This document shows, one piece after another, positions 6,290 to 32,845 of a stretch of DNA of 50,132 nt. The notes below the pieces were generated by a model that was given only the letters and a program-made list of their open reading frames with translations, was not told where the DNA came from and made no database searches. Made by a program: the position numbers and the translations under genes. Numbering within the stretch: position 1 is the first letter of the stretch; each line of letters opens with the position of its first letter. The DNA comes from an uncultured Gammaproteobacteria bacterium (GTDB lineage Bacteria > Pseudomonadota > Gammaproteobacteria > Pseudomonadales > Pseudohongiellaceae). Location of the stretch: positions 1 to 50,132 of the forward strand of contig CAXBLN010000001.1 in the NCBI GenBank assembly GCA_963976555.1, in the 5' to 3' direction.

Positions 6290-6323
6290 CCCCGCCTGTA
6301 GAATACCGAGCGAAAGACTAACG

Positions 6324-6446: not shown

Positions 6447-6465
6447 TTAACAAAAACAGATTCTG

Positions 6466-6504
6466 AAAACCCCTAAGCGCCTCTGGCCTTAGGGGTTTTT
6501 TTTT
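6466..6504 (+). terminator. Strong rho-independent terminator
   Basis: Stem cccctaag / cttagggg with an extended inner stem, followed by 9 T. It is preceded by an A-run, so it is potentially bidirectional. Confidence 0.85.
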
Positions 6505-6551
6505 GGCGTTCGTTTAGCGTGTGTGCAGTTTGGAAATAGAGGAGAAAGAGC

Positions 6552-7316: not shown

Positions 7317-7332
7317 AGATGAGAGCGCTGAT

Positions 7333-8535: not shown

Positions 8536-8586
8536 GTAAAGTAGACTGATTAGCTTAGGTATCAACAGGTAAGAAGAGATTCCAAC

Positions 8587-10439: not shown

Positions 10440-10510
10440 TATCTTGGGTGTTCCCTGGGTATGCAGCAAGAGAATCGGGCGCTAAGCCAATCGAATGAAA
10501 GGGAGAGTGT

Positions 10511-11275: not shown

Positions 11276-11317
11276 TCTAGTAAAAATGTTTAAATTGAAT
11301 TTAGGGGAAGAATAGAA

Positions 11318-12535
11318 ATGATGGACTTAGGATTATCAGAAGAACTCGTCGAAGTACGCGAAAAGATTCGCACTTTTGTTGAAGAGAAAGTAGAGCCTGT
11401 TGAGGTCGAGTACCACGATGAGGTTAGCGTAGGTGATAGATGGACACAGACGCCACGTCAGGTAGAGATTCTAGAAAGCCTGAAAGCTGAGGCGCGCAGG
11501 CTAGGCATGTGGAACTTCTTCCTGCCTGAGAGTCAGGGTGGGGCGGGTATATCGAATCTACACTACGCGCATCTTGCGGAAATCATGGGACGAAGCAGGC
11601 TTGCTTCGGAGGCATTCAACTGCAGTGCACCTGATACTGGCAATATGGAAGTTTTGGAGCGTTACGGTTCTGCAGAACAGAAGAAAGAATGGCTTGAGCC
11701 GCTGCTCGCGGGTGAGATTCGATCGGCATTCGCCATGACGGAGCCAGGTGTTGCCTCTTCCGATGCCACGAACATAGCCACGAGTGCCGTGATGGACGGC
11801 GATGAGTGGGTTATTAGCGGAGAAAAATTCTACATCTCTGGTGCGGGAGACGCGCGCTGCAAGATCATGATTGTCATGGTTGTTACCGACCCGGATGCTC
11901 CTAAGCACACCCGCCAGTCGCAGATTCTCGTGCCCATGGACACAGAGGGTGTTGAAGTCATAAGGCCTATGCATGTATTTGGTCGCGACGATGCTCCCCA
12001 TGGCCATATGCACATAAAATTTCACAACGTACGGGTTCCCCAAAGCAATATCATATTAGGCCGAGGCCGTGGTTTTGAAATCTCTCAGGGCCGTCTCGGA
12101 CCTGGACGAATCCATCACTGTATGCGTTCCATTGGTGCCGCAGAGAAGGCATTGGATCTAATGTGCCAGCGATCAGTGAGTAGAGAGGCATTCGGTAAGC
12201 CGCTAGCTGAACTGGGTGGCAATTACGACATTATTGCCGATAGTCGTATAGAAATAGAGATGTGTAGACTGCTAACCTATAAGGCCGCATGGCTGATGGA
12301 TACCATTGGCAATAAAGCAGCCCGAGATGCGATCTCTCAGATTAAAGTTGCGGTGCCAAATATGGCACTGCGTGTAATCGATCGTGCTATACAGATGCAT
12401 GGGGCGGCCGGAGTTTCGCAGGACTTCCCACTTGCGGCACTGTGGACGAGTCAGCGCACATTGCGACTGGCAGACGGTCCAGACGAAGTGCATCGCCGCG
12501 TTATTGCAAGAAAGGAGCTCGCGAAGTACAACTAG
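11318..12535 (+). CDS. Acyl-CoA dehydrogenase family protein (ACAD10/11-, FadE2-like)
   Basis: 405 aa. Motifs: [25 protein letters not shown], and C-terminal [34 protein letters not shown]. Confidence 0.85.
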
Positions 12536-12588
12536 TCTTTCGATTGGCAAGTTTCTAGACTGGCAAGCCTAAGCAAAGTGTTAGGAAA

Positions 12589-12612
12589 GGGGAAGCCTGG
12601 CTTCCCTTTTTT
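12589..12612 (+). terminator. Rho-independent terminator after the acyl-CoA dehydrogenase gene
   Basis: Hairpin gggaag-cctgg-cttccc followed by TTTTTT. Confidence 0.65.
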
Positions 12613-12671
12613 GGTGGTGCTTGGCTTGCAGAACGGAGACTCCATGTCAGCATTTTCACCCCTGGACTTTC

Positions 12672-13517
12672 ATGAAAGAAGCAATGCCGAGCAGCGCCAT
12701 GCCCGTTAATATAGTTGTGGCACATCCTCTGGAGGCCAAGGCCTTGATTCCCATGTTCGGGTTGCAGCCTACACAGAATACCTCCGGCTACGTGCAATAT
12801 AATTGTGCAAATGGTCTGCAGCTCATAGTCTCTGGCGTCGGTAGATCGGCCGTATCGGCTGCGGTGAAGTTCCTGGCAAAGCAGCAGGCCAATGAGGATA
12901 ACCAGGTCAGAGGCTGGGTGAATATTGGAATCGCTGGGCACAGAAATGCGGCTCTTGGCAGTGGCTGGCTGGCGAATAGGATCACTGATCGGGCCGCAGG
13001 CACTAGGGCCTACCCGCCACAACTTATCGATGGAATCGCTGCCTGCAGCGTAGTCACTGTGGATGAGCCGGAGCTGGTGTATCCTGAGGATGCTGTCTAT
13101 GAGATGGAGGCTTCTGCGTTCTATGGCGAAGCGAGCAGGCATTCGACAGCGGAATTGGTGCAACTATTTAAAGTTGTATCCGATAACCTGCAAAACCCGA
13201 TCAGCGATCTGGACTTGAAGAGGGTGCCGATGTGGATAGCGCAGCAAGAGGAGCAGATCGTCTCGCTCGTTCAGAGACTGAGCGAACTGGTTAATCTGCA
13301 CAATGCCAGCCATGCTATGCCGACTGCCTATCACGACCTCTGTAGCCAGTTACACTTGACCGTAAGTCAGAAATTGCAGCTGAAAAGGCTCTGTCAGCGC
13401 TACAAGGCGCTGGGGCGCGAAGCTGAGCTAGGTGGCTTCGTTGCAACTGCGGTGGGCAGTAAGAAACTAATTGCCACACTTGTAGCTCAAATTGACGAGC
13501 CAATGAATACACAGTGA
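12672..13517 (+). CDS. Nucleoside phosphorylase-superfamily protein (MTA/SAH-nucleosidase-like N-domain) with an unassigned helical C-terminal extension
   Basis: PNP_UDP_1-like order of motifs: VNIVVAHPLEAKAL, IVSGVGRSAVSAA, VNIGIAGH, YEMEASAFY. The start is uncertain. The track ORF begins at TTG 12621 just 3' of the terminator, and in-frame ATGs lie at 12672, 12684 and 12699. Confidence 0.5.
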   Translation: MKEAMPSSAMPVNIVVAHPLEAKALIPMFGLQPTQNTSGYVQYNCANGLQLIVSGVGRSAVSAAVKFLAKQQANEDNQVRGWVNIGIAGHRNAALGSGWLANRITDRAAGTRAYPPQLIDGIAACSVVTVDEPELVYPEDAVYEMEASAFYGEASRHSTAELVQLFKVVSDNLQNPISDLDLKRVPMWIAQQEEQIVSLVQRLSELVNLHNASHAMPTAYHDLCSQLHLTVSQKLQLKRLCQRYKALGREAELGGFVATAVGSKKLIATLVAQIDEPMNTQ

Positions 13518-13527
13518 TCTGAGTTTT

Positions 13528-14514
13528 ATGTTTTCGACCATCTACATTGAAGAAGAAGTATTGGAATTGCCGCGAGTAAAGGAATTGCTTGCCAGATATT
13601 CCCATATACCTCAGGTTATATGTGAGCGCTACGGTGAGGTGTTTAATCGCAAGTCACAAAATTTTCGTCTTCAGAAAAAGTCACCGGCACTGATTTTGGC
13701 GAAAAAATACGGAAACAAAGTGCTATCTGCACCGCAGGGCTATGGTTACAACGACAGCAAAAGCTACTATTTTTCGCATATGCTGAACTGCGTTTATGAT
13801 TGCCGCTATTGCTTTCTGCAAGGTATGTACAGCTCTGCAAATTATGTCCTGTTCGTTAACTTCGAGGACTTCGAGGCCGCCCTCGCTGACAAGATAGCTG
13901 AGAATGATGGCGGTGGTGTCTATTACAGCGGCTATGATTGCGACAGTCTGGCACTGGAACCGGTCAGTAATTTCTGTAAAAAATTCGTACCGCTTTTCGT
14001 AAACTATCCCCATGCGGAACTGGAGATTCGAACGAAGAGCACCCAGGTTCGTTGCCTGCTTGAGCAAGATGTAGTCTCTAATTGCGTCATTGCCATGAGC
14101 TTCACTACAAGCGAGGCAGCCTCTCGCTGGGAGCATAAGGTGCCGTCCGTAGAGAAGAGGATTGAGGCATTACACAAGCTGCAACTAGCCGGGTGGAGGG
14201 TGGCGATTCGTTTCGAGCCGCTCATTCTGGGTAGTGATGGGATTGCAGCTTATGAGGCTCTATTCGATCAGCTATTCTCGAGGCTCGATGTTGACAAGAT
14301 TCATTCCGTGAGCAGTGGTTTATTTAGAATGCCCGTCGACTTTCATAAGCGCATAGTCAAGCTCTACCCAGACGAGGAATTATTTGCACGAGCTACCGAG
14401 ATCGACGAGGGTATGATCTCCTTGAAGAACGATGATGAAGCCGCGCAGTTGGCAGCAATCGAGACGCTTCTGTTTAAATCTATTTCGCCCCAGCAGTACT
14501 ATCGCTGTGCATAG
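13528..14514 (+). CDS. SPL-family (spore photoproduct lyase-like) radical SAM protein
   Basis: Radical SAM cluster motif CVYDCRYC (CX3CX2C) within YFSHMLNCVYDCRYCFLQGMY. The size (328 aa) and overall layout fit SplB-like proteins from non-sporulating bacteria. Confidence 0.7.
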   Translation: MFSTIYIEEEVLELPRVKELLARYSHIPQVICERYGEVFNRKSQNFRLQKKSPALILAKKYGNKVLSAPQGYGYNDSKSYYFSHMLNCVYDCRYCFLQGMYSSANYVLFVNFEDFEAALADKIAENDGGGVYYSGYDCDSLALEPVSNFCKKFVPLFVNYPHAELEIRTKSTQVRCLLEQDVVSNCVIAMSFTTSEAASRWEHKVPSVEKRIEALHKLQLAGWRVAIRFEPLILGSDGIAAYEALFDQLFSRLDVDKIHSVSSGLFRMPVDFHKRIVKLYPDEELFARATEIDEGMISLKNDDEAAQLAAIETLLFKSISPQQYYRCA

Positions 14515-15393: not shown

Positions 15394-15831
15394 ATGAAAC
15401 TTTCACATAATTCACTTAAGGTAGCATCACGCCTTGCGGCTGCAGCGTTTACATTCCTAATTTCTACTGCTGCTTTTGCGCACACTGCATTGAGCGAAGC
15501 AGCGCCAGGTAATGGGGCGATAGTGAGAGAAGCCCCGGGGCATATCAATCTAACCTTCAATGGACCTGTGAAGCTCGTGAAATTGGAGCTGATGGGTGTC
15601 GGTCATGAGATGCCGACAAACTTCAAGACTAATAGCGAGGCGAAAGCTGCCTTTATGATTGAGACGCCGGGTATGCATCCTGGTGCCTTCACGGTGAACT
15701 GGGCTGTTATAGGTGCCGATGGCCACACTGTAGCAGATAGCTACAGCTTTACTGTCGATCCGAGTGCCACAGACGCACAAGTGCACGCTGCTGCTGCCGG
15801 CGGTCACGGGCACGCGGGCGACGATCACTAG
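15394..15831 (+). CDS. copC: Copper-binding periplasmic protein CopC, with a His-rich C-terminal tail
   Basis: Signal peptide ends AFA|H, so the mature N-terminus is His. CopC-fold pattern: HTALSEAAPGNGAIV ... INLTFNGPVKLVKLEL ... GAFTVNWAVIGADGHTVADSYSFTV. The tail is HAAAAGGHGHAGDDH. Confidence 0.85.
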   Translation: MKLSHNSLKVASRLAAAAFTFLISTAAFAHTALSEAAPGNGAIVREAPGHINLTFNGPVKLVKLELMGVGHEMPTNFKTNSEAKAAFMIETPGMHPGAFTVNWAVIGADGHTVADSYSFTVDPSATDAQVHAAAAGGHGHAGDDH

Positions 15832-15850
15832 TCTTTAAACAGGCATATCG

Positions 15851-16774
15851 ATGTTAACACTCCCTGACAACTGGGAGCTTGCAAGTCTACTAGCCAAACT
15901 GCTTTTTTACATAGGCGCCTTCAGCATCGCTGGAGGTAGCCTCTGTGCCTGGCGCTACTCTAATGCAAATAAAGCGGCGCTACGTTCTAACTTCTCCTAC
16001 ATGTTTTTCGGTACCGTCATCGGGTTTCACGGGGCTCTCCTGGGATTTCTTGTGCAGGTCGGCCTGATAAGCGACAGCGGTATTGTAGGTATGTTCGATT
16101 GGGGGATGATATCGATACTACTCGATACCGCTCAAGGAGATGTCGCATTGCTGCGCATGCTGGCGTTCATGCTTGCTGGGGTTTCCAGTCTGTTTCTAAT
16201 AAAGCGCTTGCCGCACTATGATCTCAGCCTCGTGAATCCCCTGACGCGACTGCTGTTTACCTTACAGGTCACTGCTCTGCTCGGCCTCGCCTATTCTCAA
16301 ACTGTGGTCGGACACGTGTCTGTGTTGAGCCCGGTTGCGCGAGCATCCATAGTCCTGCACTTCATCGCTTTTTCGCTCTGGATTGGGTGTTGCTATCCGT
16401 TTTTGCAGCTAAGCAGGAGTCTGGATCTGGAGGTCTTACAAGACTCTCTCAAGCGTTTCGGCAACAACGCAATCGTGATACTTCTTGTGCTCTTCGTAGC
16501 GGGTGGTTTAATGCTACTCGAACTGCTGGGATCGCCGCTGGAGTTGCTCAATTCGGCCTACGGTCAGGCCCTGTCGGCAAAGCTTATATTGGTGTTGGCA
16601 ATACTTGGAGTTGCTGCCATGAATAAGCTGGCTATCGTGCCGAGATTGGTCAGTAGCGGCAGTGCTGCCAGGTTGCAGACTTCACTACGTTATGAAATTG
16701 CTTTGGCTATGGCGATTCTGGTGGTGACGGCGTATTTTTCCACAATAGTAGGCCCAGCTTCTCACCAGATGTAG
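15851..16774 (+). CDS. copD: CopD-family copper resistance/transport membrane protein
   Basis: 307 aa with about 8 TM helices, immediately downstream of copC. Confidence 0.75.
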   Translation: MLTLPDNWELASLLAKLLFYIGAFSIAGGSLCAWRYSNANKAALRSNFSYMFFGTVIGFHGALLGFLVQVGLISDSGIVGMFDWGMISILLDTAQGDVALLRMLAFMLAGVSSLFLIKRLPHYDLSLVNPLTRLLFTLQVTALLGLAYSQTVVGHVSVLSPVARASIVLHFIAFSLWIGCCYPFLQLSRSLDLEVLQDSLKRFGNNAIVILLVLFVAGGLMLLELLGSPLELLNSAYGQALSAKLILVLAILGVAAMNKLAIVPRLVSSGSAARLQTSLRYEIALAMAILVVTAYFSTIVGPASHQM

Positions 16775-16806: not shown

Positions 16807-17805
16807 CTAACTAAGGTTGAGCTCGTTTGAGGAATTGGCTTCGGCTGGATTTCTGTCTTCTATCAATCTGCTCGTCTCCAGAGTATTAAGATTTAGCATG
16901 ACCAGTTCGGCAGTCTCATTCATTGGGGAATAGGCTGCATTGCTAGCCATGAACGGCTGCACTGCAAATAGTAGATTGTTTCCAATCGGCGACCAGGCAA
17001 GGTTGAATAGATGCTGATTGCTGTAGTAAACGGGAACGGGCTCGATGGCCGTGCCTAGGCCACCCAGGAAGATAGTTGAGCCGCTTGTGTCGTATTGGAT
17101 GAACGCGTATTGCTTATCATCAAGCGACACCACGGGCGTTGCGATGGCCTGGATAATAGGGTCACTCTCCATGCTGCTAAACCGCAATTCGCCTCCAAGA
17201 TAGTCGTGCTCTGTGTCGAGCACCTCATCACTCAGAAAGATGGCTTCGCTGTCGCGCTCGAACATAGGCATGCCTTTGACTGAAATCCAGCTCGCAACGA
17301 CAAGGCACAGACAGGCAGCAGATAGTGCTGCGCCGAATCTAAACGAAGGCAGCGTGAATAATGAGGTTTCGCGCGGTCGATGGCGGTCGACAGAAACGGC
17401 CGTATTTTCTGTCGCGAATTCTACTCGAGGGATAAGCCGGTAGCCTCGTTTAGGAATGGTCTCGATATAGTTGCTAACGCTAGAATCTCCAGCCTGTAGC
17501 TGTTTACGTAGCTCGGAGATCGCCCTCGTGAGTGAGTTTTCGTTGACGATGACTCGTGGCCACAATTCTTGCACCAGCTCATCACGTGTGAGGACTCGAT
17601 CCTCGTTGGCAGCCAGGTAGCAGAGTAACTTAATAAGCCGCGGTTCGAGTTGTCGCTCCTCTTTGTCGCTTTTCGACTTGAGTCGATTCAGTTCTGGCAC
17701 AATATACCAGTCCCCTAGCGAAAATGGACGGGACATGGCAGGGCTCTTTCCGTGAGTTTCTGCCCCGGTAGGCTGTTCGATGTATTCTGCGCTCTTAATA
17801 GACAT
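16807..17805 (-). CDS. ToxR/CadC-like membrane-bound winged-helix transcriptional activator with a periplasmic domain
   Basis: N-terminal OmpR/PhoB-type DNA-binding domain: LEPRLIKLLCYLAANEDRVLTRDELVQELWPRVIVNENSLTRAISELRKQL ... IETIPKRGYRLI. One TM helix (FGAALSAACLCLVVASWI) is followed by a periplasmic region of about 165 aa. Confidence 0.75.
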   Translation of the reverse strand: MSIKSAEYIEQPTGAETHGKSPAMSRPFSLGDWYIVPELNRLKSKSDKEERQLEPRLIKLLCYLAANEDRVLTRDELVQELWPRVIVNENSLTRAISELRKQLQAGDSSVSNYIETIPKRGYRLIPRVEFATENTAVSVDRHRPRETSLFTLPSFRFGAALSAACLCLVVASWISVKGMPMFERDSEAIFLSDEVLDTEHDYLGGELRFSSMESDPIIQAIATPVVSLDDKQYAFIQYDTSGSTIFLGGLGTAIEPVPVYYSNQHLFNLAWSPIGNNLLFAVQPFMASNAAYSPMNETAELVMLNLNTLETSRLIEDRNPAEANSSNELNLS

Positions 17806-23161: not shown

Positions 23162-23318
23162 TGTTAGTCTATTCTCAGCTGAGTTAGCGCCTGATTTAGC
23201 GCATATTTTTACCGTCGTGTTTCCTAAATTTGGTCGGCGATGATATTCTTGAGGCTTGGTTAGATACTGCCGTAGTGTTGTATTTTACAGTTAGTGGCGG
23301 GACGAAAACGGAAAAGAA

Positions 23319-23933
23319 TTGAAATCCTACGCATTCAACAAAATAGCAATTGCGCTCCTCGGTTTTGGACTATGGCAGCCGACTATCGGTCAGACGCCCC
23401 AGGGAGATCTGTACCATCAAGATGAAGATGTTACAGGAATAAGCCTCGAAACAGAAACTTCACCGGCCGACGATAGCGTACTCAGTGACGCCCCGCTTCT
23501 CTTGGCGTTCCCCTATGGTGTACGTTTGGTTAAGTTGACGCTTCGTAATGAGCTTCGCGACTGGGTAGACATTAGTTTTCGCTATGACCCGAAATTGCAA
23601 GAAAGCTTTCGCTGGGAAATACCGCCTCTCAATGCCGCTACGTATTACACTGCTGACTGGGCAATTCTTGCAGCGAATAACCGCCTTGTTAGGGGCAGTT
23701 TTAGCTTTTCATTCGGGCCAGATGCCGAGGTCCCCTCAGTGACAAAGGCGGCTGAACAACTATTAATTGATTCTAGAATCAGCGGCGACCCAAATACCCG
23801 CTTCGTGACGCCGCCGCGAACCAACATCATAATCAACCAAGATCAGCGTACATACGACCCGCCTTTCACGATCAAGCTCGATGACCAGGGGCGAGTCCAA
23901 CAGTCTCAGGATTCTCCAGACTCACCCCGCTAA
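23319..23933 (+). CDS. Exported CopC-like domain protein (divergent) with a Pro/Gln-rich C-terminal extension
   Basis: TTG start and signal-like N-terminus. Pattern: SPADDSVLSDAPLLLAFPYGVRLVKLTL ... TYYTADWAILAANNRLVRGSFSFSFGP. It is a paralog of 21765..22313. Confidence 0.5.
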   Translation: MKSYAFNKIAIALLGFGLWQPTIGQTPQGDLYHQDEDVTGISLETETSPADDSVLSDAPLLLAFPYGVRLVKLTLRNELRDWVDISFRYDPKLQESFRWEIPPLNAATYYTADWAILAANNRLVRGSFSFSFGPDAEVPSVTKAAEQLLIDSRISGDPNTRFVTPPRTNIIINQDQRTYDPPFTIKLDDQGRVQQSQDSPDSPR

Positions 23934-23939
23934 TTCCAA

Positions 23940-24887
23940 CTAGCGACCCACGTTCACCGTGATGCGTTGGTCATGGAATAGACCGCCATCGTCACCCCGT
24001 GCCCAGAGAACGTATTCACCGGGCTCAGAAAATGTCGCTCTCACCTCGTAGATACCGTCTTCGGGGATAGGAGGTGGGGTCCACAGAGCTCCCCAGGGTG
24101 AATTTGCAGATGTTCGTGTATCTTCCCACGGCTTGACCTGAGCCGGCTCGAAACTTACCTCGCCGGGTCCACGGTATTTATTCCAGGATAGGAATAGTCC
24201 GTTGGTCTTACCGACTGTAGTTCTGCGGGGTGGGCGCATCATGCGATCGCTAACCGAGGTTTCTGTACTCGCAGCGGTGGTGCGGCGTGGTTTGGGTAGT
24301 CCGTCGTCAGCTACATGTGTCCGTATAACGATTTCTTCTCCTACTTTAGCGTTTCTTACAATGCTGCCGTTTACCGTGTCGCCTTGTACGGTTACGACAG
24401 GCGGAACGTTCGCGCGAGACTCGGGGCTGCTCGTTCCTGCTCCCAATGAGCCAGTCTCCGAGGCGATGACCATATTATCTATGAGATAGTCCGTCGTTAG
24501 GGTGCCGTAAGCACGGTTAGTTTCACCGTTGTGGGTGATTGTCCATGTCAGCTCTCTGTCGCCCCAATCTGATGGCACGACAACCTCAAACGTAAACCGA
24601 TTTCGTCTCGGCAGGAAGTGGGTAGGCTGGCCGCGATCGGCGTCGCCGGGAGAGAAGAAATTGTTCTCGCCTACATCGATATCCGGCTGTTCTTCCCAAT
24701 TCTCGTTCATGTAACCGAAGACGAGGGTGAAGGTTCCGTCGTCATTGGCGTGCCAGCCTTCATAGCCGGGCTCAATTTCTGCTCCAGAGCGATAGCTGAG
24801 TTGGGCTGATACGGAGGTAGCACTCAATATAGAGACTAGCAATATCCCCGACAGCCAGATTGATCTCTTGCTCGAATGTCTATTCAT
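23940..24887 (-). CDS. Secreted protein of unknown function, tandem paralog A
   Basis: Signal peptide present. It shares identical runs with 25075..26007: NNFFSPGDADRGQPTHFLPRRNRFTFEVVVPSDWG, DNMVIASETGSLGAGTSSPESRAN, KPWEDTRTSANSPWGALW. The C-terminus looks like an Ig/PKD-like beta-sandwich (EDGIYEVRATFSEPGEYVLWARGDDGG). Confidence 0.8.
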   Translation of the reverse strand: MNRHSSKRSIWLSGILLVSILSATSVSAQLSYRSGAEIEPGYEGWHANDDGTFTLVFGYMNENWEEQPDIDVGENNFFSPGDADRGQPTHFLPRRNRFTFEVVVPSDWGDRELTWTITHNGETNRAYGTLTTDYLIDNMVIASETGSLGAGTSSPESRANVPPVVTVQGDTVNGSIVRNAKVGEEIVIRTHVADDGLPKPRRTTAASTETSVSDRMMRPPRRTTVGKTNGLFLSWNKYRGPGEVSFEPAQVKPWEDTRTSANSPWGALWTPPPIPEDGIYEVRATFSEPGEYVLWARGDDGGLFHDQRITVNVGR

Positions 24888-24982
24888 CTTATTCTCCCTT
24901 TAGAATTACTTTTATTTTTTTAATTGCTCTAATATTAGCTCAAAGACCCGATAGGCGATTGGAGTGATTCCGGCATGCTCAG

Positions 24983-25023
24983 TCGACAATAAATCAAATT
25001 TAGAATGTATTGAATATTGTCGA
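24983..25023. promoter_or_regulatory. Inverted repeat TCGACAATA-N23-TATTGTCGA, with a third GACAATA copy at 25030, upstream of paralog A
   Basis: 9-bp arms read from the sequence. It sits 96-136 nt upstream of start codon 24887, between the terminator of paralog B and an AT-rich promoter-like stretch. Confidence 0.3.
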
Positions 25024-25035
25024 ATTTTGGACAAT

Positions 25036-25062
25036 AAAAAGGGGCGAAAATCGCCCCTTTTT
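25036..25062 (-). terminator. Rho-independent (bidirectional-looking) terminator after tandem paralog B
   Basis: Stem ggggcga / tcgcccc with a 3-nt loop, flanked by AAAAA and TTTTT. It lies 13 nt beyond the stop of 25075..26007. Confidence 0.8.
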
Positions 25063-25074
25063 GCCATGCGTCAG

Positions 25075-26007
25075 CTACTCACTAACATTCACTGTGATGT
25101 AGCCATCGTGGTACAGCCCGCCATCATCCGCGCGACCCCACAGTATGTATGTTCCAGGCTCGTCAAAAGTCGCGGTGACTTCATATAGCCCGTCCTCTGG
25201 TGGCTCGGGTGGAAGCCATAGCGCTCCCCAAGGGGAGTTTGCCGAAGTTCTTGTGTCTTCCCAAGGCTTAGGCATGGGTGGATCGAATGTCACATTGCCA
25301 GGCCCACGGTACTTGTTCCAGGAGAGGAACAGACCATTTACTTTGCCAACAGTGATGCGCGAAGGAGGGCGCATCATGCGGTTCCTGAGATCATCCTCGT
25401 CGATCGTGCTTTCGCGTCGTGCCTTAGGCAGACCGTCGTCCATAACCTGGGTAACAAAGTTCAGCTCTTCGCCTACCTTAACTGTGCGAATATCATCGCC
25501 TTGAATGGTCACGACAGGAGGGATGTTCGCACGAGATTCAGGACTACTGGTGCCAGCACCGAGTGAGCCCGTTTCAGATGCGATAACCATATTGTCAACG
25601 AGATAGTCTGCCTTCAGCGTTGCGTAGGCCTTTCGTTCTACTCCGTTTACATTCAGTGTCCATACGAGTTCACGTTCACCCCAATCGGAGGGAACGACGA
25701 CTTCGAATGTGAAGCGATTTCTGCGTGGCAGGAAGTGAGTAGGTTGGCCTCGGTCGGCATCCCCCGGAGAGAAAAAATTATTATCTCCTACCTCAACATC
25801 AGGTTGCTCCGTCCAATTCTCATTCATGTAGCCAAACATGAAGCTGAAAGTGCCATCCGCATTCGGACGCCAGCCTTCGTAGGCAGGTTCAACGTGTTGA
25901 CCATACTGATAGGTGTCGGCGGAGGCCGCGCTTGAAACGACTAGTAAAAATACAACAATCAGCAGAGAGTTAGCTCTGCTGATTGCCTCACTGGTTAGCT
26001 TGATCAT
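25075..26007 (-). CDS. Secreted protein of unknown function, tandem paralog B
   Basis: Signal peptide present. It is colinear with 23940..24887 along its entire length and starts 19 nt after the upstream haem/copper-protein gene. Confidence 0.8.
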   Translation of the reverse strand: MIKLTSEAISRANSLLIVVFLLVVSSAASADTYQYGQHVEPAYEGWRPNADGTFSFMFGYMNENWTEQPDVEVGDNNFFSPGDADRGQPTHFLPRRNRFTFEVVVPSDWGERELVWTLNVNGVERKAYATLKADYLVDNMVIASETGSLGAGTSSPESRANIPPVVTIQGDDIRTVKVGEELNFVTQVMDDGLPKARRESTIDEDDLRNRMMRPPSRITVGKVNGLFLSWNKYRGPGNVTFDPPMPKPWEDTRTSANSPWGALWLPPEPPEDGLYEVTATFDEPGTYILWGRADDGGLYHDGYITVNVSE

Positions 26008-26026
26008 CTTGCTACTACAACCTCGA

Positions 26027-27466
26027 TTAGTTACCGGCTACGTCGTTTGCTTCTTCGCTATCAGACTCAGCGATTGGTGCGACCAGCGGTGCCAAACAAA
26101 GCGGGCATCCAATGACGTGGTCATTTGGACCTAAGTCCAGTGCCTGACGTCGATCTTCCATTGCCTCGAAAAACTGATCATCGGTTAGAGTCACCCGAAT
26201 GCCCAGATCGATGAACATATTCGTTACTGAGCGGTTACCAGAACCCTGCCAGTTGCGTGGATCAGGAACATTAGGGTTTGTCTCCGTGTTGTTCATGTAG
26301 CCAACGATGTGCAGGATAGTACCCTTTGGCAACAAGGGAGCTGCATTCTCTGCGTAAGGATAGCCGCGCACCCAGTTGTGATCGTAGCCAACGCAGGATA
26401 GGGTTTCCACTGTGTAGCCCCAGATTGCTTCAAGACACATACGCTCGCCTGGTGCGTGCAGATGGGGCTCAAATGTCACGACTTTGGTGTGCTGATTTAG
26501 CACGGTATAAGCGTGAAGTTCCTGGTCCTTCTCGTTTCCAGTAATACTAATATCTACGCCGTTACCGAGGCCGATGAAGGCATTCTGATACTTAGGCTTG
26601 TAGTCCTTGTCGTGGAAACGGAAACCCACTTCGAGGTGGCCAGTCGTATCGCGACCATTGGAGTGCAGATGCACCGAGTCGGATACTATCGAAGAGCCTG
26701 CCTTTAACAAGCGACCAGCATCTTCGTCGAAGATGTCTGCATTTCTGCCTACTTCGTGAACAGGCCACGGAATAGAGATGCCAGGACCGCGCTCACCATT
26801 TTCGTCAAGGATAGCTGTGCCCCAGATCATATGATGGAAGATATACGCGCCACCTACCGTGTCACGACCTGTGCCTGCTTGATTGTCGACATCGTTAACT
26901 TCGACTACTTCGACTGACTTCACATAGCGATCTTCTTCCAGACCCGTAGGTATGTAATCAATCTCACCCCACCAGTCAGGCGTGCCTGCCAGCTTCGTAA
27001 CATCATTCATTACAACGACCAAATCCGGCTCGCCAGCCTTCCACTTCAGGCTGTCGTCGAATACCAATGGAGTAGGGGCGTCGGCCATGTCGCCTTTAGG
27101 TGTGCCGCTGCGTGCCCAAGTGGAGATGAGAGCTAATTCCTCGTCGCTCAGAGAAGGGTCATCTTTATACTCTTGGATACCAATGTTTTTCTCCATGTAC
27201 CAGGGAGGCATAGCGCCTGCGCGGTCACGTAGAGCCGTCTTGTACTCGATCAAACCTGCGAATGGAGCAACTTGGTCATAGGTCACCAGGGGCATGGGAC
27301 CAGCGCCACCTGCTCGATGGCAATTCTGACAGCTGCGCTGCAAAATTGGTTCAATGTCCTTGTGGAATGTGACTTCGCTGGATTGTGCCAGCGTAATTCC
27401 AGGCATGGACATTGCTGCTGCTATGGCCATACCGCCTAACAGTGATTTAGCGGAAATAATTCGCAT
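26027..27466 (-). CDS. Exported c-type-haem (CxxCH) protein with PHM/DBH-like copper-monooxygenase histidine motifs
   Basis: Signal peptide present, and CQNCH lies within FHKDIEPILQRSCQNCHRAGGAGPMPL. Then come FHHM, HLH, PHLHAPGERM and GYM, in the order and approximate spacing of the CuH/CuM ligands of copper type II ascorbate-dependent monooxygenases. Strong SD (GAGGAG). Confidence 0.55.
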   Translation of the reverse strand: MRIISAKSLLGGMAIAAAMSMPGITLAQSSEVTFHKDIEPILQRSCQNCHRAGGAGPMPLVTYDQVAPFAGLIEYKTALRDRAGAMPPWYMEKNIGIQEYKDDPSLSDEELALISTWARSGTPKGDMADAPTPLVFDDSLKWKAGEPDLVVVMNDVTKLAGTPDWWGEIDYIPTGLEEDRYVKSVEVVEVNDVDNQAGTGRDTVGGAYIFHHMIWGTAILDENGERGPGISIPWPVHEVGRNADIFDEDAGRLLKAGSSIVSDSVHLHSNGRDTTGHLEVGFRFHDKDYKPKYQNAFIGLGNGVDISITGNEKDQELHAYTVLNQHTKVVTFEPHLHAPGERMCLEAIWGYTVETLSCVGYDHNWVRGYPYAENAAPLLPKGTILHIVGYMNNTETNPNVPDPRNWQGSGNRSVTNMFIDLGIRVTLTDDQFFEAMEDRRQALDLGPNDHVIGCPLCLAPLVAPIAESDSEEANDVAGN

Positions 27467-27555
27467 ATGTTGCTACTCCTCATAGCTTGTTTAATCGTAA
27501 TTCTTTGGGGCTGAATAAGAATACATGTTGATCCGTAATAACCCGGAACAATAGC

Positions 27556-27572
27556 ACTATTCGACGAATAGT
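27556..27572. promoter_or_regulatory. Perfect palindrome ACTATTCG-A-CGAATAGT upstream of the haem/copper-protein gene
   Basis: 17-nt palindrome read from the sequence, 90-106 nt upstream of start codon 27466. Confidence 0.35.
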
Positions 27573-27665
27573 TGAATGTCTGGAGGTGCGATATGCGTCC
27601 ATTAATCAGTAACTGTAATCTTCGAATGCGCTGTTTATCGCTCAATCTGTCGAAAAGCTTCGAAA

Positions 27666-28478
27666 TTAGTCCGCTTTCCCTGCTGTGCCGGCCTTGCTGG
27701 GGCTCAGGCCCTGCTGCCCTTTGAGTAGAGCCCAGAGGTTGCTGCTGGCGAGCAAACTTGCGAATAAGACTAATAAAGCGAAGCTAAACCATTGAAGTGC
27801 ATAGGATAAATTCTGGTTCACATCCGCATTTACGGCGGGCCAGTGGCGTACGAGCACGCCAGGCTGATCTTCTGTGAGGCGCACCTCGAAGGGAAACAAC
27901 GGCTCACCGAGGATTTCGGTTAATACATCGAATTCTACAGTTCGTATCCGCAGCGGCCACACCGAAGGGTCGATCTGGCTCTCGAAAACTCGGGCGTTTG
28001 CAGCAGGCACGAATATCTGTGCAGTTATTTCAACAGGCCCCGAAACCGGTCGTAGCACTGGTGGTGTATCGGGTGGCAGGATGCCAGTAGTCCAGCCTCT
28101 GTTCACCAGTACCAACTGATTATTGCTCTCGAGCCGGAAGGGCGTTACGACGCCATAGCCGATCATCCCTTGAAAGAATTCAGCCACTAACAGGATGGTT
28201 CGTTCATTGACGAATTCTCCGCGCAGCGCGACGTGTAGATTCGCTATGTCCGGATTTGCGCTGTGTAAATGTCCACTGGGTATATCTTCTATCGATTGAG
28301 CATTCAAACTGGATTCAAGCAGCAAGGCTTCTTGCGCATCAACCTTTTCGGCGGCTCGCTCGAGTTGCCAGAGCCCCAGCCTGGCGAAGGCGGCCACGGT
28401 CATAAAAACACAGACGGCGAATAGCCAGTTAATGCGAATATGGAAAATCCCGATTGAGTGTTTGGAGCGAAGTTGCAT
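27666..28478 (-). CDS. SURF1-family protein (cytochrome oxidase biogenesis factor-like)
   Basis: N- and C-terminal TM helices are present. Family motifs: RLGLWQLERAAEK, LVLVNRGWT, NLSYALQWFSFALLV. Confidence 0.8.
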   Translation of the reverse strand: MQLRSKHSIGIFHIRINWLFAVCVFMTVAAFARLGLWQLERAAEKVDAQEALLLESSLNAQSIEDIPSGHLHSANPDIANLHVALRGEFVNERTILLVAEFFQGMIGYGVVTPFRLESNNQLVLVNRGWTTGILPPDTPPVLRPVSGPVEITAQIFVPAANARVFESQIDPSVWPLRIRTVEFDVLTEILGEPLFPFEVRLTEDQPGVLVRHWPAVNADVNQNLSYALQWFSFALLVLFASLLASSNLWALLKGQQGLSPSKAGTAGKAD

Positions 28479-28628
28479 TTCAAGCCATTTTGAAGTGAAT
28501 GTTTAGCTAGTGAGAGAGCGTTGCTGCTGGTTTAACTATTGCCGAGCAATCGTCGATCTATTGAGCGCAGGAAGCCTAATTCAGATCGAGTGCAAATTCA
28601 ATCAAGACATGTTTTTTCGGCGTCAGAC

Positions 28629-29135
28629 TTAGCACCACAGACACCAATGATAGGGAGGTCTGTAGTAGGTAATAAGCCGGCCACATATAATGACTGCGCA
28701 CCAACATCCGAGAGAAATAATCGCCATGATCTTTGCACGACTGACTATAGGTGCGGCGGCGTCTGCAGAGTTGACATATCTGGCGGTGGTTGCGTAGAAG
28801 AACATCATGTTGATGCCCGCTATTAGCATAAAGAAGAGTTTTGACTGCACGGCTGGATTATAGAGATATTGATCGGGGGCGCTGCTGAGAAACATGGTGC
28901 CAGTCACAACATTTAGCAAATAGCCACAAATGCCGAAGGGTACTAGCTTGTGTAGCTCCCTCAGTGATACTTCTTTGCTAAATCCCATCATCCTCAGGTC
29001 AAACAGGCCGACTGTACCAATCAGTAGGCACAGTCCGAAGAAGTGAAGAGATTCGATTATGGGCCAACCCCATGGTGTATTCATGAAGGAGTAGATGCCT
29101 GTTGCTTGCGAAAAACTGAGTAAGAATTCAATCAT
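28629..29135 (-). CDS. Small 4-TM membrane protein of unknown function (paralog of 29142..29585), C-terminal HWCLWC
   Basis: 168 aa. It shares a colinear pattern with the upstream gene: ESLH ... LRMMGF ... NPAVQSKL ... GRLITY versus SLTLH ... LRLVGF ... NPVFYLKI ... GRFLAY. Confidence 0.6.
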   Translation of the reverse strand: MIEFLLSFSQATGIYSFMNTPWGWPIIESLHFFGLCLLIGTVGLFDLRMMGFSKEVSLRELHKLVPFGICGYLLNVVTGTMFLSSAPDQYLYNPAVQSKLFFMLIAGINMMFFYATTARYVNSADAAAPIVSRAKIMAIISLGCWCAVIICGRLITYYRPPYHWCLWC

Positions 29136-29141
29136 GGTGGC

Positions 29142-29585
29142 TCAATAGAAACGAGAGGCAAGCAGTGTAGAGTGGGTATAAGCGAGAAATCGGCCAGCGC
29201 TAAGCGCGACTATCCAGAGGAGCAAAGACAGATATGCGAGTCGAACAGATTGGGCGTCAATTGCCTGCTCGGACGGTTTGGAGAAAGTTCTTTGGAAGCG
29301 CCTGCTTATCAGCAGGCCTATGGTTAGTGCACAGATCTTCAGATAGAACACCGGATTGCTAAGTGCCTTCGCTGGATAAGCTAACAGCAGGGCAGTGCCG
29401 GAGACGAATATCAGCGCGGCGCAATACCAATGCAGGGTGTAGAAACGAGTCAATGCGTGGATATCGAGTCGAGGAGCAAAGCCGACTAGTCTGAGCGCGA
29501 TCGCTATGTTGATTCCCACGACAAAGCCCATCGACAGTGAATGCAGAGTCAGCGAACTAAAGAACGCAGGCCCGGACTCACGCAT
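29142..29585 (-). CDS. Small 4-TM membrane protein of unknown function (paralog of 28629..29135)
   Basis: 147 aa and hydrophobic. Its stop lies 6 nt before the next gene's start. Confidence 0.6.
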   Translation of the reverse strand: MRESGPAFFSSLTLHSLSMGFVVGINIAIALRLVGFAPRLDIHALTRFYTLHWYCAALIFVSGTALLLAYPAKALSNPVFYLKICALTIGLLISRRFQRTFSKPSEQAIDAQSVRLAYLSLLLWIVALSAGRFLAYTHSTLLASRFY

Positions 29586-29947
29586 CCAAATGCTGAGGGC
29601 GGTTTCTTCCAGTCTTGCTAGTGTTTGCAGTTTTCGTTACTCGCAATCAACTGTGGATATTTAAGCGGCGAGCCTGGCTTTCGTAGAGAAGTGGGTCGAT
29701 AGAATTTTTCTATCAGCCAGGCAGACTCTCATGGCCGGTCTAGAGTCCGCTTTGTGCATTGTCTGCAATGCCACGATAGCCGCCGTTGGCTGAAATACTT
29801 GATTTGCGCCAGGCAGGGCTTGTAGCCTGATATTTAGCTGGGCGCGGCGCCGCTGTCAACAGCTAACTTCTCTGCGGGAGTCATTTTGAATTTGGCTGCC
29901 GCCTTGAAAGTGATATGGTACTTAAAACAAGAATAATGGAGGTTGAT

Positions 29948-30781
29948 ATGGTTATGCATCAGAAAGGAACGGGGCGATTAACCTCGGTTTCCGCGTTATT
30001 GGCGGTATCGCTATTTATATTATTTAGTGGCGGCGTTGCAGGGGCCGAGTCTGATTTCGTGCCGAGAACAGCTGACGGTCGCCCTGACTTCAATGGTGTC
30101 TGGCAGGCAATTGGCAGTGCGCACTGGGATGTTGAGCCCCATGCGGCAGACTTCGGCCCCCTCGTTGAGCTAGGCGCGATAGGCGCGATTCCCGCAGGAC
30201 TGGGCATAGTACAGGGCGGGGAGATTCCCTATACGCCTCAGGCTCGAGCGATTCAGCAGCAGAATAAGGCGGATTGGCTGGCATTGGATCCCGTTGTTAA
30301 GTGCTATATGCCGGGTGTTCCGCGAGCCAATTATCTACCTTTTCCCTTCCAGATCATTCAGTCTCCTGAGCATGTAGTGATGGCCTACGAATTTGCGAGC
30401 GCAAGCCGCATCGTCTACATGGACCGACCTGACTTCGAGGCGCCAATATTTAGCTGGATGGGGCATTCTCGCGGTCGTTTCGAAGGCGATAGTCTGGTTA
30501 TAGATGTCACGGATCAGGTGCCAGACACGTGGCTAGATCATGCAGGTAATCACCACAGTGATGCGTTGAGGGTAACCGAGCGCTATACCCATCTGGGGCC
30601 GAACGCGCTGATGTACGAAGCGACGCTCGAAGATCCTAATGTTTATACAGCACCCTGGACACTGAAATTTCCGCTTTACCGGCGGCTGGATGAGAACATG
30701 CAGTTGTTGGAATTCAAATGCGTGGAATTTACCGAGGAACTCATCTACGGCCACCTAGTCAAGGAACCTCAGGAGCAGTAA
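29948..30781 (+). CDS. Secreted protein of unknown function
   Basis: Signal peptide LTSVSALLAVSLFILFSGGVAGA. GGAGG lies 5 nt before ATG 29948, whereas the track ORF starts at 29915. I recognise no motif. Confidence 0.65.
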   Translation: MVMHQKGTGRLTSVSALLAVSLFILFSGGVAGAESDFVPRTADGRPDFNGVWQAIGSAHWDVEPHAADFGPLVELGAIGAIPAGLGIVQGGEIPYTPQARAIQQQNKADWLALDPVVKCYMPGVPRANYLPFPFQIIQSPEHVVMAYEFASASRIVYMDRPDFEAPIFSWMGHSRGRFEGDSLVIDVTDQVPDTWLDHAGNHHSDALRVTERYTHLGPNALMYEATLEDPNVYTAPWTLKFPLYRRLDENMQLLEFKCVEFTEELIYGHLVKEPQEQ

Positions 30782-30891: not shown

Positions 30892-32121
30892 ATGAACGAG
30901 TTCTTCGATCTAAGTACTGTGACTTGGAGCCTGATTGGCTTCATGGTCCTGCTTATTGCTTATTTTCATGGCCCCAGCTATTCGGCGCAGACGGTTCGCA
31001 ATGCGCCGGCCATACTTACAAGTTTCGGCATATTCGGCACATTCCTTGGCATCGCTTTCGGTTTGATGCGGTTCGACAGCGCAGATATCGAGGCGAGTGT
31101 TCCACTTATGATCGATGGTCTCGGCGTTGCCGTTTGGTCTTCGATTGTTGGGATACTTGGCGCTTTAAGTATCAGGCTGCGAAATACTCTGATCTCGATA
31201 AGGCGCAGTATCGACGGCGAAGAGAAGCCAGCAACTGTCGCCGATCTTAATCGTTCTATCGAAGCACTCAACGTTAACCTTGAGCAACTGAGGGGGGAGA
31301 GCAAGGCCGACAGTCTTGCCCTTCTGAATTCGAATCGCGATTATCAACAAAAAATGGTTGCTGCAAATACCGACGCACTGACCAGTGCGCTCGCTACAGT
31401 GATGACTGAGTTCAATAGCCGTATCGAGGTTCAATACGGGGAAAACTTTCAGAAGTTTAACGAATCTCTCGGTCACCTTTTGAGCTGGCAGCAGAACTAT
31501 ACGAATCAGTTGGACGATATGTTGCGTGCCCAGAAGGCAAGTATCGAAGTAATAAGTCATGCCAGCCAATCCTATGAGCAGATGATCGTCCATTCGCAGA
31601 ACTTCAACAAAGTGGCCGAGTCCCTGGGTAATCTGCTTGGTGGTCTGGAGCAGCAGACTTCGAATCTGGAAGGTTATCTGTCGGGCTTGTCCGGACTGGT
31701 CGGTCAGGCATCGGAGGGATTGCCCGCGCTTGGCGACTATGTAAGTGAACTGACTCTAAAGCTGAGCGCTAGTATTGAGCAGAACAATGAAAGCCTCACG
31801 CAAGTGCTTGCGACGGCGGCGCGAGATATATCGGAGACGGTGGAGCAGGTTACGCAGAGTCTGGCCAACTCGGTGAATCAGGCGCATTCCGGCTTGGCCG
31901 AGCATGTCGAGGCTATGACCGATAAGACCGAGAAACAGATGCAATTGCTGGATCAGTCCATGGAAAAGGAACTTACGGCCGCCCTGCAGACATTTGGCTA
32001 TCAGCTGACAGCGCTGTCGGAGAAGTTCGTTAACGACTATGTGCCTCTTACTGACAGGCTGCGTGAATTGCTGCTTATGGCCGAGCAGCAGTCGGGCAAG
32101 CGTGCACAAACCTCCAAGTAG
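30892..32121 (+). CDS. MotA/ExbB/TolQ-type proton-channel protein with a long C-terminal coiled-coil tail (ZorA-like architecture)
   Basis: Three N-terminal TM helices: WSLIGFMVLLIAYF, ILTSFGIFGTFLGIAFGL, GLGVAVWSSIVGILGALSI. They are followed by about 300 aa of Q/E/L/S/N-rich helical sequence. Confidence 0.65.
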   Translation: MNEFFDLSTVTWSLIGFMVLLIAYFHGPSYSAQTVRNAPAILTSFGIFGTFLGIAFGLMRFDSADIEASVPLMIDGLGVAVWSSIVGILGALSIRLRNTLISIRRSIDGEEKPATVADLNRSIEALNVNLEQLRGESKADSLALLNSNRDYQQKMVAANTDALTSALATVMTEFNSRIEVQYGENFQKFNESLGHLLSWQQNYTNQLDDMLRAQKASIEVISHASQSYEQMIVHSQNFNKVAESLGNLLGGLEQQTSNLEGYLSGLSGLVGQASEGLPALGDYVSELTLKLSASIEQNNESLTQVLATAARDISETVEQVTQSLANSVNQAHSGLAEHVEAMTDKTEKQMQLLDQSMEKELTAALQTFGYQLTALSEKFVNDYVPLTDRLRELLLMAEQQSGKRAQTSK

Positions 32122-32127
32122 AAAAAT

Positions 32128-32841
32128 ATGCTGGAAGCAAAACTCGAACAAGAAATAGAGCAAGAATCGGAAGAGCATTGGATAGCGGTTAGCGATTTGA
32201 TGAGTGGCCTGATGATGCTCTTCCTGCTGATTGCTGTGATGTATCTGGTTATAGTCGAGCGCAAGAACGATGAGATCGAACGGGTTGTCGTTCTCTATGA
32301 AGATCTTCGAGAAGAGCTGTACACCGATCTGCTCGCCGAGTTCGTCGACGACCTGCCGCTTTGGGGAGCGGAGCTCGGGGAAGACCTAAAGTTTCGCTTT
32401 ACGAATACCAACTTACTTTTTGAAGAAGGGCAGTCTGACCTGAAGCTGGAATTCTCAAACATCCTTAGCGACTTTTTCCCACGCTATGTGGCAATACTCA
32501 CGTCTAAAGAATATCGCGACGATATACTCGAGCTTCGCATCGAAGGGCATACCTCCAGTTCTTGGTCATTCGCCGCCGACAGCGACGATGCCTATATGAG
32601 AAACATGGCGCTCTCGCAAGAACGTACGCGCACGACACTGGGCTTTCTCTTCGATCTGGAAGATGTGGCGCACGAGAAGACCTGGCTTAGAGAGCGTATG
32701 ACAGCGAATGGGCTGTCTTCCTCTCAGCTCATTCTGCGAGACGATGGGCTCGAGGATGAAGAACGCTCGCGTCGAGTTGAGTTCGTGGTTGTGACCGATG
32801 CCGAGACGCGTCTGTCGACTATTCTGGAAGAGATTCGCTAA
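32128..32841 (+). CDS. MotB/OmpA-type stator partner (ZorB-like architecture)
   Basis: Acidic N-terminus. A single TM helix carries an embedded Asp (WIAVSDLMSGLMMLFLLIAVMYL). The C-terminus is an OmpA-like peptidoglycan-binding domain (LRIEGHTSS ... NMALSQERTRTTL ... RRVEFVVV). There is a 6-nt gap after the upstream gene. Confidence 0.7.
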   Translation: MLEAKLEQEIEQESEEHWIAVSDLMSGLMMLFLLIAVMYLVIVERKNDEIERVVVLYEDLREELYTDLLAEFVDDLPLWGAELGEDLKFRFTNTNLLFEEGQSDLKLEFSNILSDFFPRYVAILTSKEYRDDILELRIEGHTSSSWSFAADSDDAYMRNMALSQERTRTTLGFLFDLEDVAHEKTWLRERMTANGLSSSQLILRDDGLEDEERSRRVEFVVVTDAETRLSTILEEIR

Positions 32842-32845
32842 GCCT

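Follow-up and report, generated by a model that had tools for sequence, protein, structure and literature searches.

We analysed a 50,132-nt stretch of contig CAXBLN010000001.1 (hereafter the window) from an uncultured Gammaproteobacteria bacterium of the Pseudohongiellaceae, and focused on one of its genes, which encodes a 479-residue secreted protein (referred to as the query). The gene product is probably a periplasmic, haem-wired member of the "non-coupled binuclear" copper monooxygenases, the class formed by peptidylglycine alpha-hydroxylating monooxygenase (PHM) and dopamine beta-hydroxylase (DBH). A c-type cytochrome domain is followed in the query by two predicted beta-sandwich domains, whose six putative copper ligands are conserved among its homologs, and a second secreted protein is encoded beside it in most of the related loci. 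The features discussed below are listed with their positions in Table 1.

Putative haem and copper sites and kinship with PHM and DBH

The original prediction, made from the DNA without database searches, described an open reading frame (ORF) with a signal peptide, a single haem c motif, and a series of histidine and methionine motifs resembling, in order and approximate spacing, the CuH and CuM sites of PHM and DBH. All of these were located in the translation, the motifs by direct indexing: CQNCH at residues 46–50 (in a single copy), FHHM at 210–213, HLH at 266–268, PHLHAPGERM at 334–343, and GYM at 389–391, with 54 residues between H212 and H266, 67 between H268 and H335, and 54 between H337 and M391, in agreement with the original description. 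The N-terminus, MRIISAKSLLGGMAIAAAMSMPGITLA followed by Q, was judged by eye to be an apparent Sec signal and contains no twin-arginine motif as read from the sequence; a Sec-type signal would be compatible with maturation of the haem domain by the Ccm system.

Conservation was assessed in two alignments, one of 28 full-length diverse representatives that are 26–72% identical to the query (A1), and one of 120 homologs that are 37–95% identical to it (A2). In A2, 52 of the 479 positions (11%) are invariant, and among them are the haem-domain residues C46, C49, H50, and M86 and all six copper-ligand positions (H211, H212, H266, H335, H337, and M417). Down to the 26% identity reached in A1, C46, C49, H50, M86, H211, H212, H266, and H335 are still invariant, and at least 90% of the sequences retain H337 and M417. 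That all metal ligands are invariant in A2 while 11% of positions are invariant overall points to selection on the metal sites. The putative histidine ligands, whose loss in homologs had been named in advance as grounds for giving up the claim, are thus kept in homologs down to 26–40% identity. Their arrangement follows that of the two copper sites: H211, H212, and H266 form an adjacent histidine pair with a third histidine about 55–65 residues further on in the first beta-sandwich domain (CuH), and H335, H337, and M417 form an HxH motif with a methionine about 70–80 residues further on in the second (CuM).

The methionine of the CuM site differs from the one originally proposed, which was that of the GYM motif (M391). 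M391 is kept in just 28 of 83 aligned representatives, and we rejected it in favor of M417, which aligns with the CuM methionine of PHM and is kept, besides all of A2, in 62 of 77 sequences of a noisier, fragment-rich representative set. The correspondence to PHM was read from a profile of the C-terminal domain only, whose match to PHM in the PDB (E ~1.2) is not significant; this co-linear alignment served for residue correspondence and not as evidence of homology. With the same marginal E-value, it pairs fqpHmH of the family with YRVHTH of PHM and GersvdeM with GGTSSDEM, the PHM residues being presumably H242/H244 and M314 in rat numbering. On the strength of this co-linearity and of its conservation, we assign the putative CuM methionine to M417, which lies in the motif R-S-V-T-N-M-F (TNMF, matching SDEM of PHM).

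The haem domain (residues ~31–125) contains the invariant CxxCH motif of class I c-type cytochromes (C46-Q-N-C49-H50) and an invariant methionine, M86, in the motif MPPW, which is likely the sixth (distal) haem ligand. In the query itself, the match to Pfam Cytochrome_CBB3 (6e-4, 20.5 bits) is below the cut-off of 27 bits; 16 of the 28 A1 relatives match this family (best 4.1e-9), and 5 of the 28 match Haem_bd. In the structural model described below, this domain has helices at residues 34–45, 63–79, and 108–119. Its local sequence, F-x-K-D-I-x-P-I-L-x-x-x-C-x-x-C-H ... L-S-x-x-E-x-x-x-I-x-x-W, is similar both to the C-terminal haem domain of hydrazine synthase alpha and to PDB 4rlr. Together, the invariant CxxCH and M86 and the weak cytochrome c matches in the relatives support the haem c domain that was originally predicted.

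Kinship of the remaining part with PHM and DBH is best seen with profiles. Searched against the PDB, the A1 profile matches human DBH (4zel) best (E = 1.5e-4, ~200 profile positions), with the family motifs vHH, HlH, and pHmH aligned with VHH, HYH, and LHTH of DBH, respectively. When the A1 relatives were scanned one by one, 7 of the 28 matched Pfam Cu2_monoox_C and 1 of the 28 matched Cu2_monooxygen, all of them weakly, with the best relative scoring 22.9 bits against Cu2_monoox_C, just below its gathering threshold of 23. A phmmer search of the PDB with the query sequence alone matched only the neighborhood of the haem motif (hydrazine synthase alpha and 4rlr) and gave no PHM match, and NCBIfam likewise gave no copper-monooxygenase match on the query, its sole result being confined to the surroundings of the haem motif. 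The hidden Markov model (HMM) check that had been suggested with the original prediction therefore had a divided outcome: the two copper-monooxygenase families are absent from the query and below cut-off in its relatives, and the cytochrome c families are found, weakly, in 16 of the 28.

An AlphaFold2 model built on the 120 homologs of A2 has a mean predicted local distance difference test score (pLDDT) of 76.5 and a predicted template-modeling score of 0.71, and consists of three helices at the N-terminus and, after them, two beta-sandwich domains. (The model made from the single sequence, without an alignment, has a pLDDT of 31 and is unusable.) When the alignment-based model was compared with the PDB by Foldseek, ranks 1–31 were all PHM or DBH structures with a probability of 1.00, E-values of 1.6e-8 to 1.8e-5, and ~300 aligned columns; template-modeling scores normalized by the target were 0.51–0.61 for PHM chains and 0.31–0.35 for the longer DBH chains. 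Beyond rank 31, the matches were unrelated jelly-roll proteins, with E-values poorer by at least about three orders of magnitude. The predicted catalytic core thus has the two-domain beta-sandwich fold of the PHM/DBH class, the fold on which the original prediction had been staked.

Taken with the profile match and the conservation of the ligands, these structural matches bear out the proposed kinship with PHM and DBH. They also rule out that the histidines of an unrelated secreted cytochrome have fallen into this pattern by chance, an explanation in favor of which we can name the failure of Pfam on the query protein and nothing further, and whose probability is negligible. It is also very improbable that the protein is a non-catalytic binding module of the PHM/PNGase F fold joined to a cytochrome c (e.g., a sensor or a structural periplasmic protein). 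Such a module would be in line with the very low identity to the enzymes, with the lack of any curated HMM above threshold, and with at least one family member (P0132) in which the second histidine of CuM and its methionine are no longer present; the metal ligands, however, are invariant in 120 sequences in which 11% of positions are invariant overall.

The substrate is likely to differ from that of PHM. Residues R240, N316, and Y318 of rat PHM, which we take to hold the C-terminal carboxylate and backbone of the peptide, are absent at the aligned positions both in the query (according to the weak C-domain alignment) and in family representatives. R240 is replaced by E333 in the query and mostly by E or Q across the family, N316 by I419 (variable across the family), and Y318 by L421 (L or W across the family). 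Because the carboxylate-binding residues are missing, the substrate is presumably not a glycine-extended peptide, and the query should not be called a peptidylglycine monooxygenase.

Several observations weigh against the assignment of the query to the PHM/DBH monooxygenases. With the PHM substrate residues not conserved, the chemistry could differ too. Neither Cu2_monooxygen nor Cu2_monoox_C matches the query protein at E-values up to 0.1, and no Pfam or NCBIfam model of this enzyme class matches the query or any relative tested at its curated threshold. Identity in the structural alignments with PHM and DBH is 9–14%, and the pLDDT of the model is low (a block of 49–58) exactly around M417, with further weak parts in the haem domain. 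A cytochrome c fused to other periplasmic enzymes is often an electron exit and not an entry. Finally, no RNA run holding the locus was found.

A conserved partner protein and the genomic context of the family

Downstream of the query gene, the original prediction had placed a second secreted protein in the same operon after a gap of 19 nt, and this arrangement proved real and strongly co-conserved. By a strict ORF-based count, the partner lies directly downstream on the same strand in 64 of 81 enzyme genes (those in the fetched related loci with enough downstream sequence), with gaps of −47 to +163 nt; at least 4 of the 17 misses are artefacts of the ORF filter, as tblastn finds the partner there. 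A homolog search indicated that the partner is as widespread as the enzyme. It was also found outside the Pseudohongiellaceae set, in five distant contigs that encode enzymes of the 420–480-residue class (38–40% identical to the query). In all five, a partner homolog (281–319 residues, 34–37% identity, E = 1e-43 to 1e-51) adjoins the enzyme gene, in either gene order, and one of the contigs carries two cassettes, one of them with the gene order reversed. The closest named relatives of these distant enzymes are labeled Vicinamibacterales and Terriglobia (Acidobacteria).

In the window, the partner gene is followed by a paralog of itself, a duplication shared with the closest relatives (L007, L008, L009, and L011) and not with most others. 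The 310-residue partner has no Pfam family match. Many Asp, Asn, Trp, and Gly residues are conserved in its alignment, which contains no conserved Cys or His metal motif, and we read the protein as a putative non-redox subunit. Its last 50 residues are weakly PKD/Ig-like, as seen from marginal matches in sequence and profile searches of the PDB. Most likely, it is an obligatory partner of the enzyme, a subunit that would shape the binding of the substrate.

The family to which the query belongs is large. Among 8000 candidates scored (90% clustering level), 6606 proteins have E-values ≤1e-3, and 378 representatives with E-values <1e-30 were found among 1.84 billion 50%-identity representatives; thousands of the sequences are metagenomic, and members also occur among proteins labeled by their sources as Acidobacteria, Kiritimatiellia, and Bacteroidota. 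The best 80 genome loci (66–94% identity) are all from metagenome-assembled genomes (MAGs) of Pseudohongiella, Pseudohongiellaceae, or Pseudomonadales, or near these. The window accordingly comes from a marine member of this group, and its stretch was found in one marine metagenome DNA run. A single MAG often yields two or three of the loci, indicating several divergent paralogous cassettes per genome, and in three loci (L054, L067, and L083) two divergent cassettes stand in tandem. In these three, the second cassette (25–54% identity) is a few kb from the first, at positions 9462–12049, 9339–11602, and 8716–10977, respectively; in another locus (L088), the two cassettes at 5015–7272 and 9230–11649 are strongly divergent as well (25–54% identity), and one of them has its partner upstream.

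Two longer relatives (P0218 and P0251) have a PHM-like core of 25–37% identity and an additional N-terminal peroxiredoxin/thioredoxin-like (AhpC/TSA) domain. In P0218, a cytochrome c domain lies between the AhpC/TSA domain and the PHM-like core, while no cytochrome HMM match was obtained for P0251. One locus of this type was examined (L089, JBPNMT010000094.1, positions 4171–13926), and no partner gene was detected there. It encodes a 1251-residue protein that combines AhpC/TSA, cytochrome c, and PHM-like parts and carries the module twice, and two more AhpC/TSA-carrying genes adjoin it, one of which also has a PHM-like module.

Upstream of the query gene is a SURF1 homolog, whose known function relates to the haem a of cytochrome oxidase, not to haem c. 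It had been noted as an orphan, and this holds within the window, as a Pfam scan of every non-nested ORF of at least 150 residues found no cytochrome oxidase subunit in the 50 kb. Where the enzyme is at least 82% identical to the query, most loci have SURF1 upstream, and it is never found beside the paralogous or distant cassettes. A place for it in the module was therefore rejected, since it is tied only to this orthologous Pseudohongiellaceae locus, and it is probably a lineage-specific neighbor. A pair of DUF6644 genes, an acyl-CoA thioesterase gene, and a gene for a 288-residue secreted protein are likewise syntenic only with the orthologous locus, at this level of enzyme identity (at least 82%).

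Genes with a likely role in copper handling are also found around the query gene. Two genes for CopC-like secreted proteins, 41% identical to each other, flank the acyl-CoA thioesterase gene, and the cluster of CopC-like proteins ranks third among the neighbors of the family by frequency, occurring in 28 loci that include paralogous cassettes. These recurrent neighbors fit a supply of copper to a periplasmic cuproenzyme. One could also suppose that the protein itself serves copper homeostasis, i.e., that its copper sites and haem bind, oxidize, or hand over copper together with the CopC-like, CopD, and DUF6644 proteins and act on no organic substrate. The locus is indeed rich in copper genes (the canonical copC-copD pair at 15493–16774, the two CopC-like genes, and the DUF6644 pair with its weak CopD likeness), and the CopC-like genes recur beside paralogous cassettes. 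However, CopC neighbors would be equally expected for the metallation of a cuproenzyme, the cassettes of distant genomes have no copper genes nearby, and the presence of several divergent paralogous cassettes per genome fits a diversification of substrates better. In one distant locus, two TonB-dependent receptor genes enclose, in this order, the genes of the enzyme, its partner, and an amidohydrolase, a context that likewise fits substrate diversification better and suggests, as a hint from a single case, action on an imported compound. In view of these points, we consider a function in copper homeostasis decidedly unlikely.

Other genes of the window are described here for completeness of the locus. 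On the strand opposite to copC-copD, a gene for a CadC/ToxR-like membrane regulator follows that pair. The two small DUF6644 membrane proteins, weakly similar to DUF2214/CopD, are encoded in tandem directly upstream of SURF1; in one related locus (L042), the pair stands directly before the enzyme gene, SURF1 being absent from the interval. The 288-residue secreted protein has no match in Pfam, NCBIfam, or PADLOC, and homologs of it (25–33% identity) are encoded near some paralogous cassettes (L057, L062, L063, L069, and L085). Next to it is a complete type II Zorya anti-phage system. The site of this system is empty in an 83%-identical relative, where a peptidase M20 gene abuts SURF1, and it looks like a variable defense islet beside the copper locus. 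Farther away, the window encodes a bifunctional FO (deazaflavin chromophore) synthase CofGH, in this case in a gammaproteobacterium, and a member of the spore-photoproduct-lyase family. A scan of positions 23300–29900 for promoters and terminators gave sites that were no commoner than in shuffled sequence.

Table 1. Positions of the query gene, its domains and putative metal ligands, and neighboring genes in the window (aa, amino acids).
Feature	Position	Strand	Basis or remark
Query gene: 479-aa secreted cytochrome c / PHM-DBH-like putative two-copper protein	26027..27466	−	ORF with ATG start; homologous family; PHM/DBH fold and profile matches
Signal peptide, residues 1–27, apparent Sec type (...TLA before Q)	27386..27466	−	By-eye reading of the sequence
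Class-I-like c-type cytochrome domain, residues ~31–125; three helices, the last being the SDEELALISTWARSG helix	27092..27376	−	Sub-threshold Pfam match; matches of relatives; model helices
CQNCH haem c attachment motif (C46, C49, H50)	27317..27331	−	Invariant in A1 and A2
M86 in invariant MPPW, likely sixth haem ligand	27209..27211	−	Invariant in A1 and A2
PHM-like N-terminal beta-sandwich (CuH domain), residues ~145–290	26597..27034	−	Profile alignment to DBH; conservation; Foldseek
H211, H212, CuH ligand positions	26831–26836	−	Align with DBH VHH
H266, CuH ligand position	26669–26671	−	Aligns with DBH EVHYH
PHM-like C-terminal beta-sandwich (CuM domain), residues ~291–445	26132..26596	−	Alignments to DBH and PHM; conservation; weak Cu2_monoox_C matches in relatives
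H335, H337, CuM ligand positions	26456–26464	−	Align with DBH QLHTH and PHM YRVHTH
M417, CuM ligand position	26216–26218	−	Aligns with PHM GGTSSDEM
Partner gene: 310-aa secreted protein with its own signal peptide	25075..26007	−	19 nt after the stop codon of the query gene
Paralog of the partner, 315 aa (68% identity)	23940..24887	−	187 nt past the partner gene; BLASTP 5e-158
SURF1 homolog	27666..28478	−	Pfam 8.4e-30; 199 nt upstream of the query gene
Divergent CopC-like secreted protein, 204 aa, candidate copper carrier	23319..23933	+	Pfam CopC 8.6e-4, below cut-off
Second CopC-like secreted protein, 182 aa	21765..22313	−	Pfam CopC 3.6e-7; syntenic in orthologous loci
copC and copD, canonical pair	15493–16774	+	1e-17 (copC) and 8.9e-17 (copD)
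CadC/ToxR-like membrane regulator	16807–17805	−	
DUF6644 small membrane proteins, two in tandem	28629–29585	−	
288-aa secreted protein	29915–30781	+	
Type II Zorya system	30892–33487	+	PADLOC: ZorA2 3e-89, ZorB2 4.5e-87, ZorE HNH nuclease 5.4e-32
FO synthase CofGH, 811 aa	38748–41183	−	NCBIfam 1127 bits (cut-off 1018)
Spore-photoproduct-lyase-family gene	13528–14514		

Proposed mechanism and the direction of electron flow

Based on the domain architecture and the conserved residues, we propose the following path. The protein would be exported by Sec, and the Ccm system would attach one haem c at C46/C49, with H50 as its proximal and M86 as its distal axial ligand. Two copper ions would be loaded in the periplasm, possibly by the neighboring CopC-like proteins: CuH onto H211, H212, and H266 of the first beta-sandwich, and CuM onto H335, H337, and M417 of the second. 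A periplasmic carrier of the respiratory chain would then deliver single electrons to the fused haem, from which they would pass to CuH and on to CuM. At CuM, O2 would be activated and a C–H bond of a periplasmic substrate hydroxylated, with the partner protein helping to hold this substrate. In enzymes of the class, the two mononuclear coppers are separated by solvent, lie ~11 Å from each other, and face the cleft between the domains. In the eukaryotic enzymes, electrons come from ascorbate that is regenerated via cytochrome b561. Given its fused cytochrome and periplasmic location, the query probably does not use ascorbate as its donor, and we infer that the haem takes the place of ascorbate.

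Electrons could also flow in the opposite direction. In that case, the copper core would oxidize a periplasmic substrate (or Cu(I)), and haem c would pass the electrons to the respiratory chain, as in the quinohaemoprotein dehydrogenases, so that the protein would be an oxidase or dehydrogenase. That the PHM substrate-binding residues are not kept would be in keeping with this, as would the common use of a fused cytochrome c as an electron exit in periplasmic dehydrogenases and the presence, in one distant genome, of a pyrroloquinoline quinone (PQQ) dehydrogenase with a cytochrome c domain of its own directly upstream on the same strand. We nevertheless consider this direction unlikely, given that A2 shows no variation in any residue of the CuH (His3) and CuM (His2Met) ligand sets, an arrangement that to our knowledge occurs only in O2-activating monooxygenases, and that we know of no dehydrogenase with this fold, the top 31 Foldseek matches being solely PHM and DBH.

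Relation to known systems and significance of the family

The query is most aptly placed in a distant bacterial branch of the PHM/DBH class, one that is new and has a different electron-input device. It resembles PHM, the catalytic core of PAM (1phm, 1opm, and 1sdw), in its two consecutive beta-sandwich domains (Foldseek E-values from 1.6e-8), in the order of its ligands (HH...H for CuH and HxH...M for CuM), and in the context of its methionine (G-x-[ST]-x-[DN]-[ED]-M, as in GGTSSDEM of PHM). Unlike PHM, it is bacterial and apparently periplasmic, is 9–12% identical to it, has an N-terminal c-type cytochrome fused to the core, lacks a PAL domain, and has a conserved partner protein and a single conserved Cys pair (C344/C358). 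DBH (4zel) and the related tyramine beta-hydroxylase share the core fold and provide the best PDB profile match, with all three histidine motifs aligned. In contrast to them, the query is prokaryotic and has neither a DOMON nor a dimerization domain, carrying a cytochrome c at the N-terminus instead, and its electron donor is presumably not ascorbate.

For a haem c that feeds a copper site of the same periplasmic protein, a precedent is found in the three-domain Cu nitrite reductases (e.g., of Ralstonia pickettii), in which the fused haem c is the built-in donor to the electron-transfer copper. These enzymes differ from the query in their cupredoxin fold, their type 1 and type 2 copper, and their reduction of nitrite, and share no homology with it. 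The same principle of a haem-to-copper relay underlies the transfer of electrons from the cytochrome of cellobiose dehydrogenase to lytic polysaccharide monooxygenases, and from cytochrome b561 via ascorbate to PHM and DBH. In those relays, however, haem and copper are on separate proteins, the haem is of the b type, and the systems are eukaryotic and have unrelated folds.

Some bacterial sequences are, as we understand it, already placed in the PHM/PNGase F fold by superfamily-level databases, and architectures that join AhpC/TSA with Cu2_monoox domains are presumably visible in Pfam; that bacterial relatives exist at all is for this reason not new. A full-text literature search of incomplete coverage found no account of a bacterial cytochrome c-fused PHM/DBH-like protein, which is absence of evidence only. 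A review of the metalloproteome lists PHM and DBM as eukaryote-only cuproproteins (PMC7435645). What is new here is the conserved fusion to cytochrome c, the most likely obligatory partner protein, the expansion of paralogs, and the complete conservation of the ligands. Beyond the query itself, we tentatively put forward a wider possibility, namely that bacteria hold a large, widespread, and unrecognized class of two-component periplasmic copper monooxygenases, in which a fused haem c would connect the copper core to the respiratory chain without ascorbate, the partner would set the substrate, and the paralogs would hydroxylate various imported compounds in marine heterotrophs such as Pseudohongiella; this class may then be the prokaryotic stock of the "eukaryote-only" PHM and DBH.

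PHM and DBH are textbook enzymes, and in animals their two-copper, O2-activating core makes noradrenaline and amidated hormones, yet their long-range electron transfer from CuH to CuM and their activation of O2 are still debated. A bacterial version would provide a built-in, spectroscopically visible one-electron donor with which the delivery of electrons to CuH and CuM could be timed, an ascorbate-independent route to the same chemistry, and a class of C–H hydroxylation enzymes that can be expressed in bacteria. The partner protein would add a second unannotated family tied to that of the enzyme. As the family is large, abundant with multiple paralogs in marine Pseudohongiellaceae, and found among proteins labeled as belonging to other groups, its substrate could be relevant to how dissolved organic matter is turned over.

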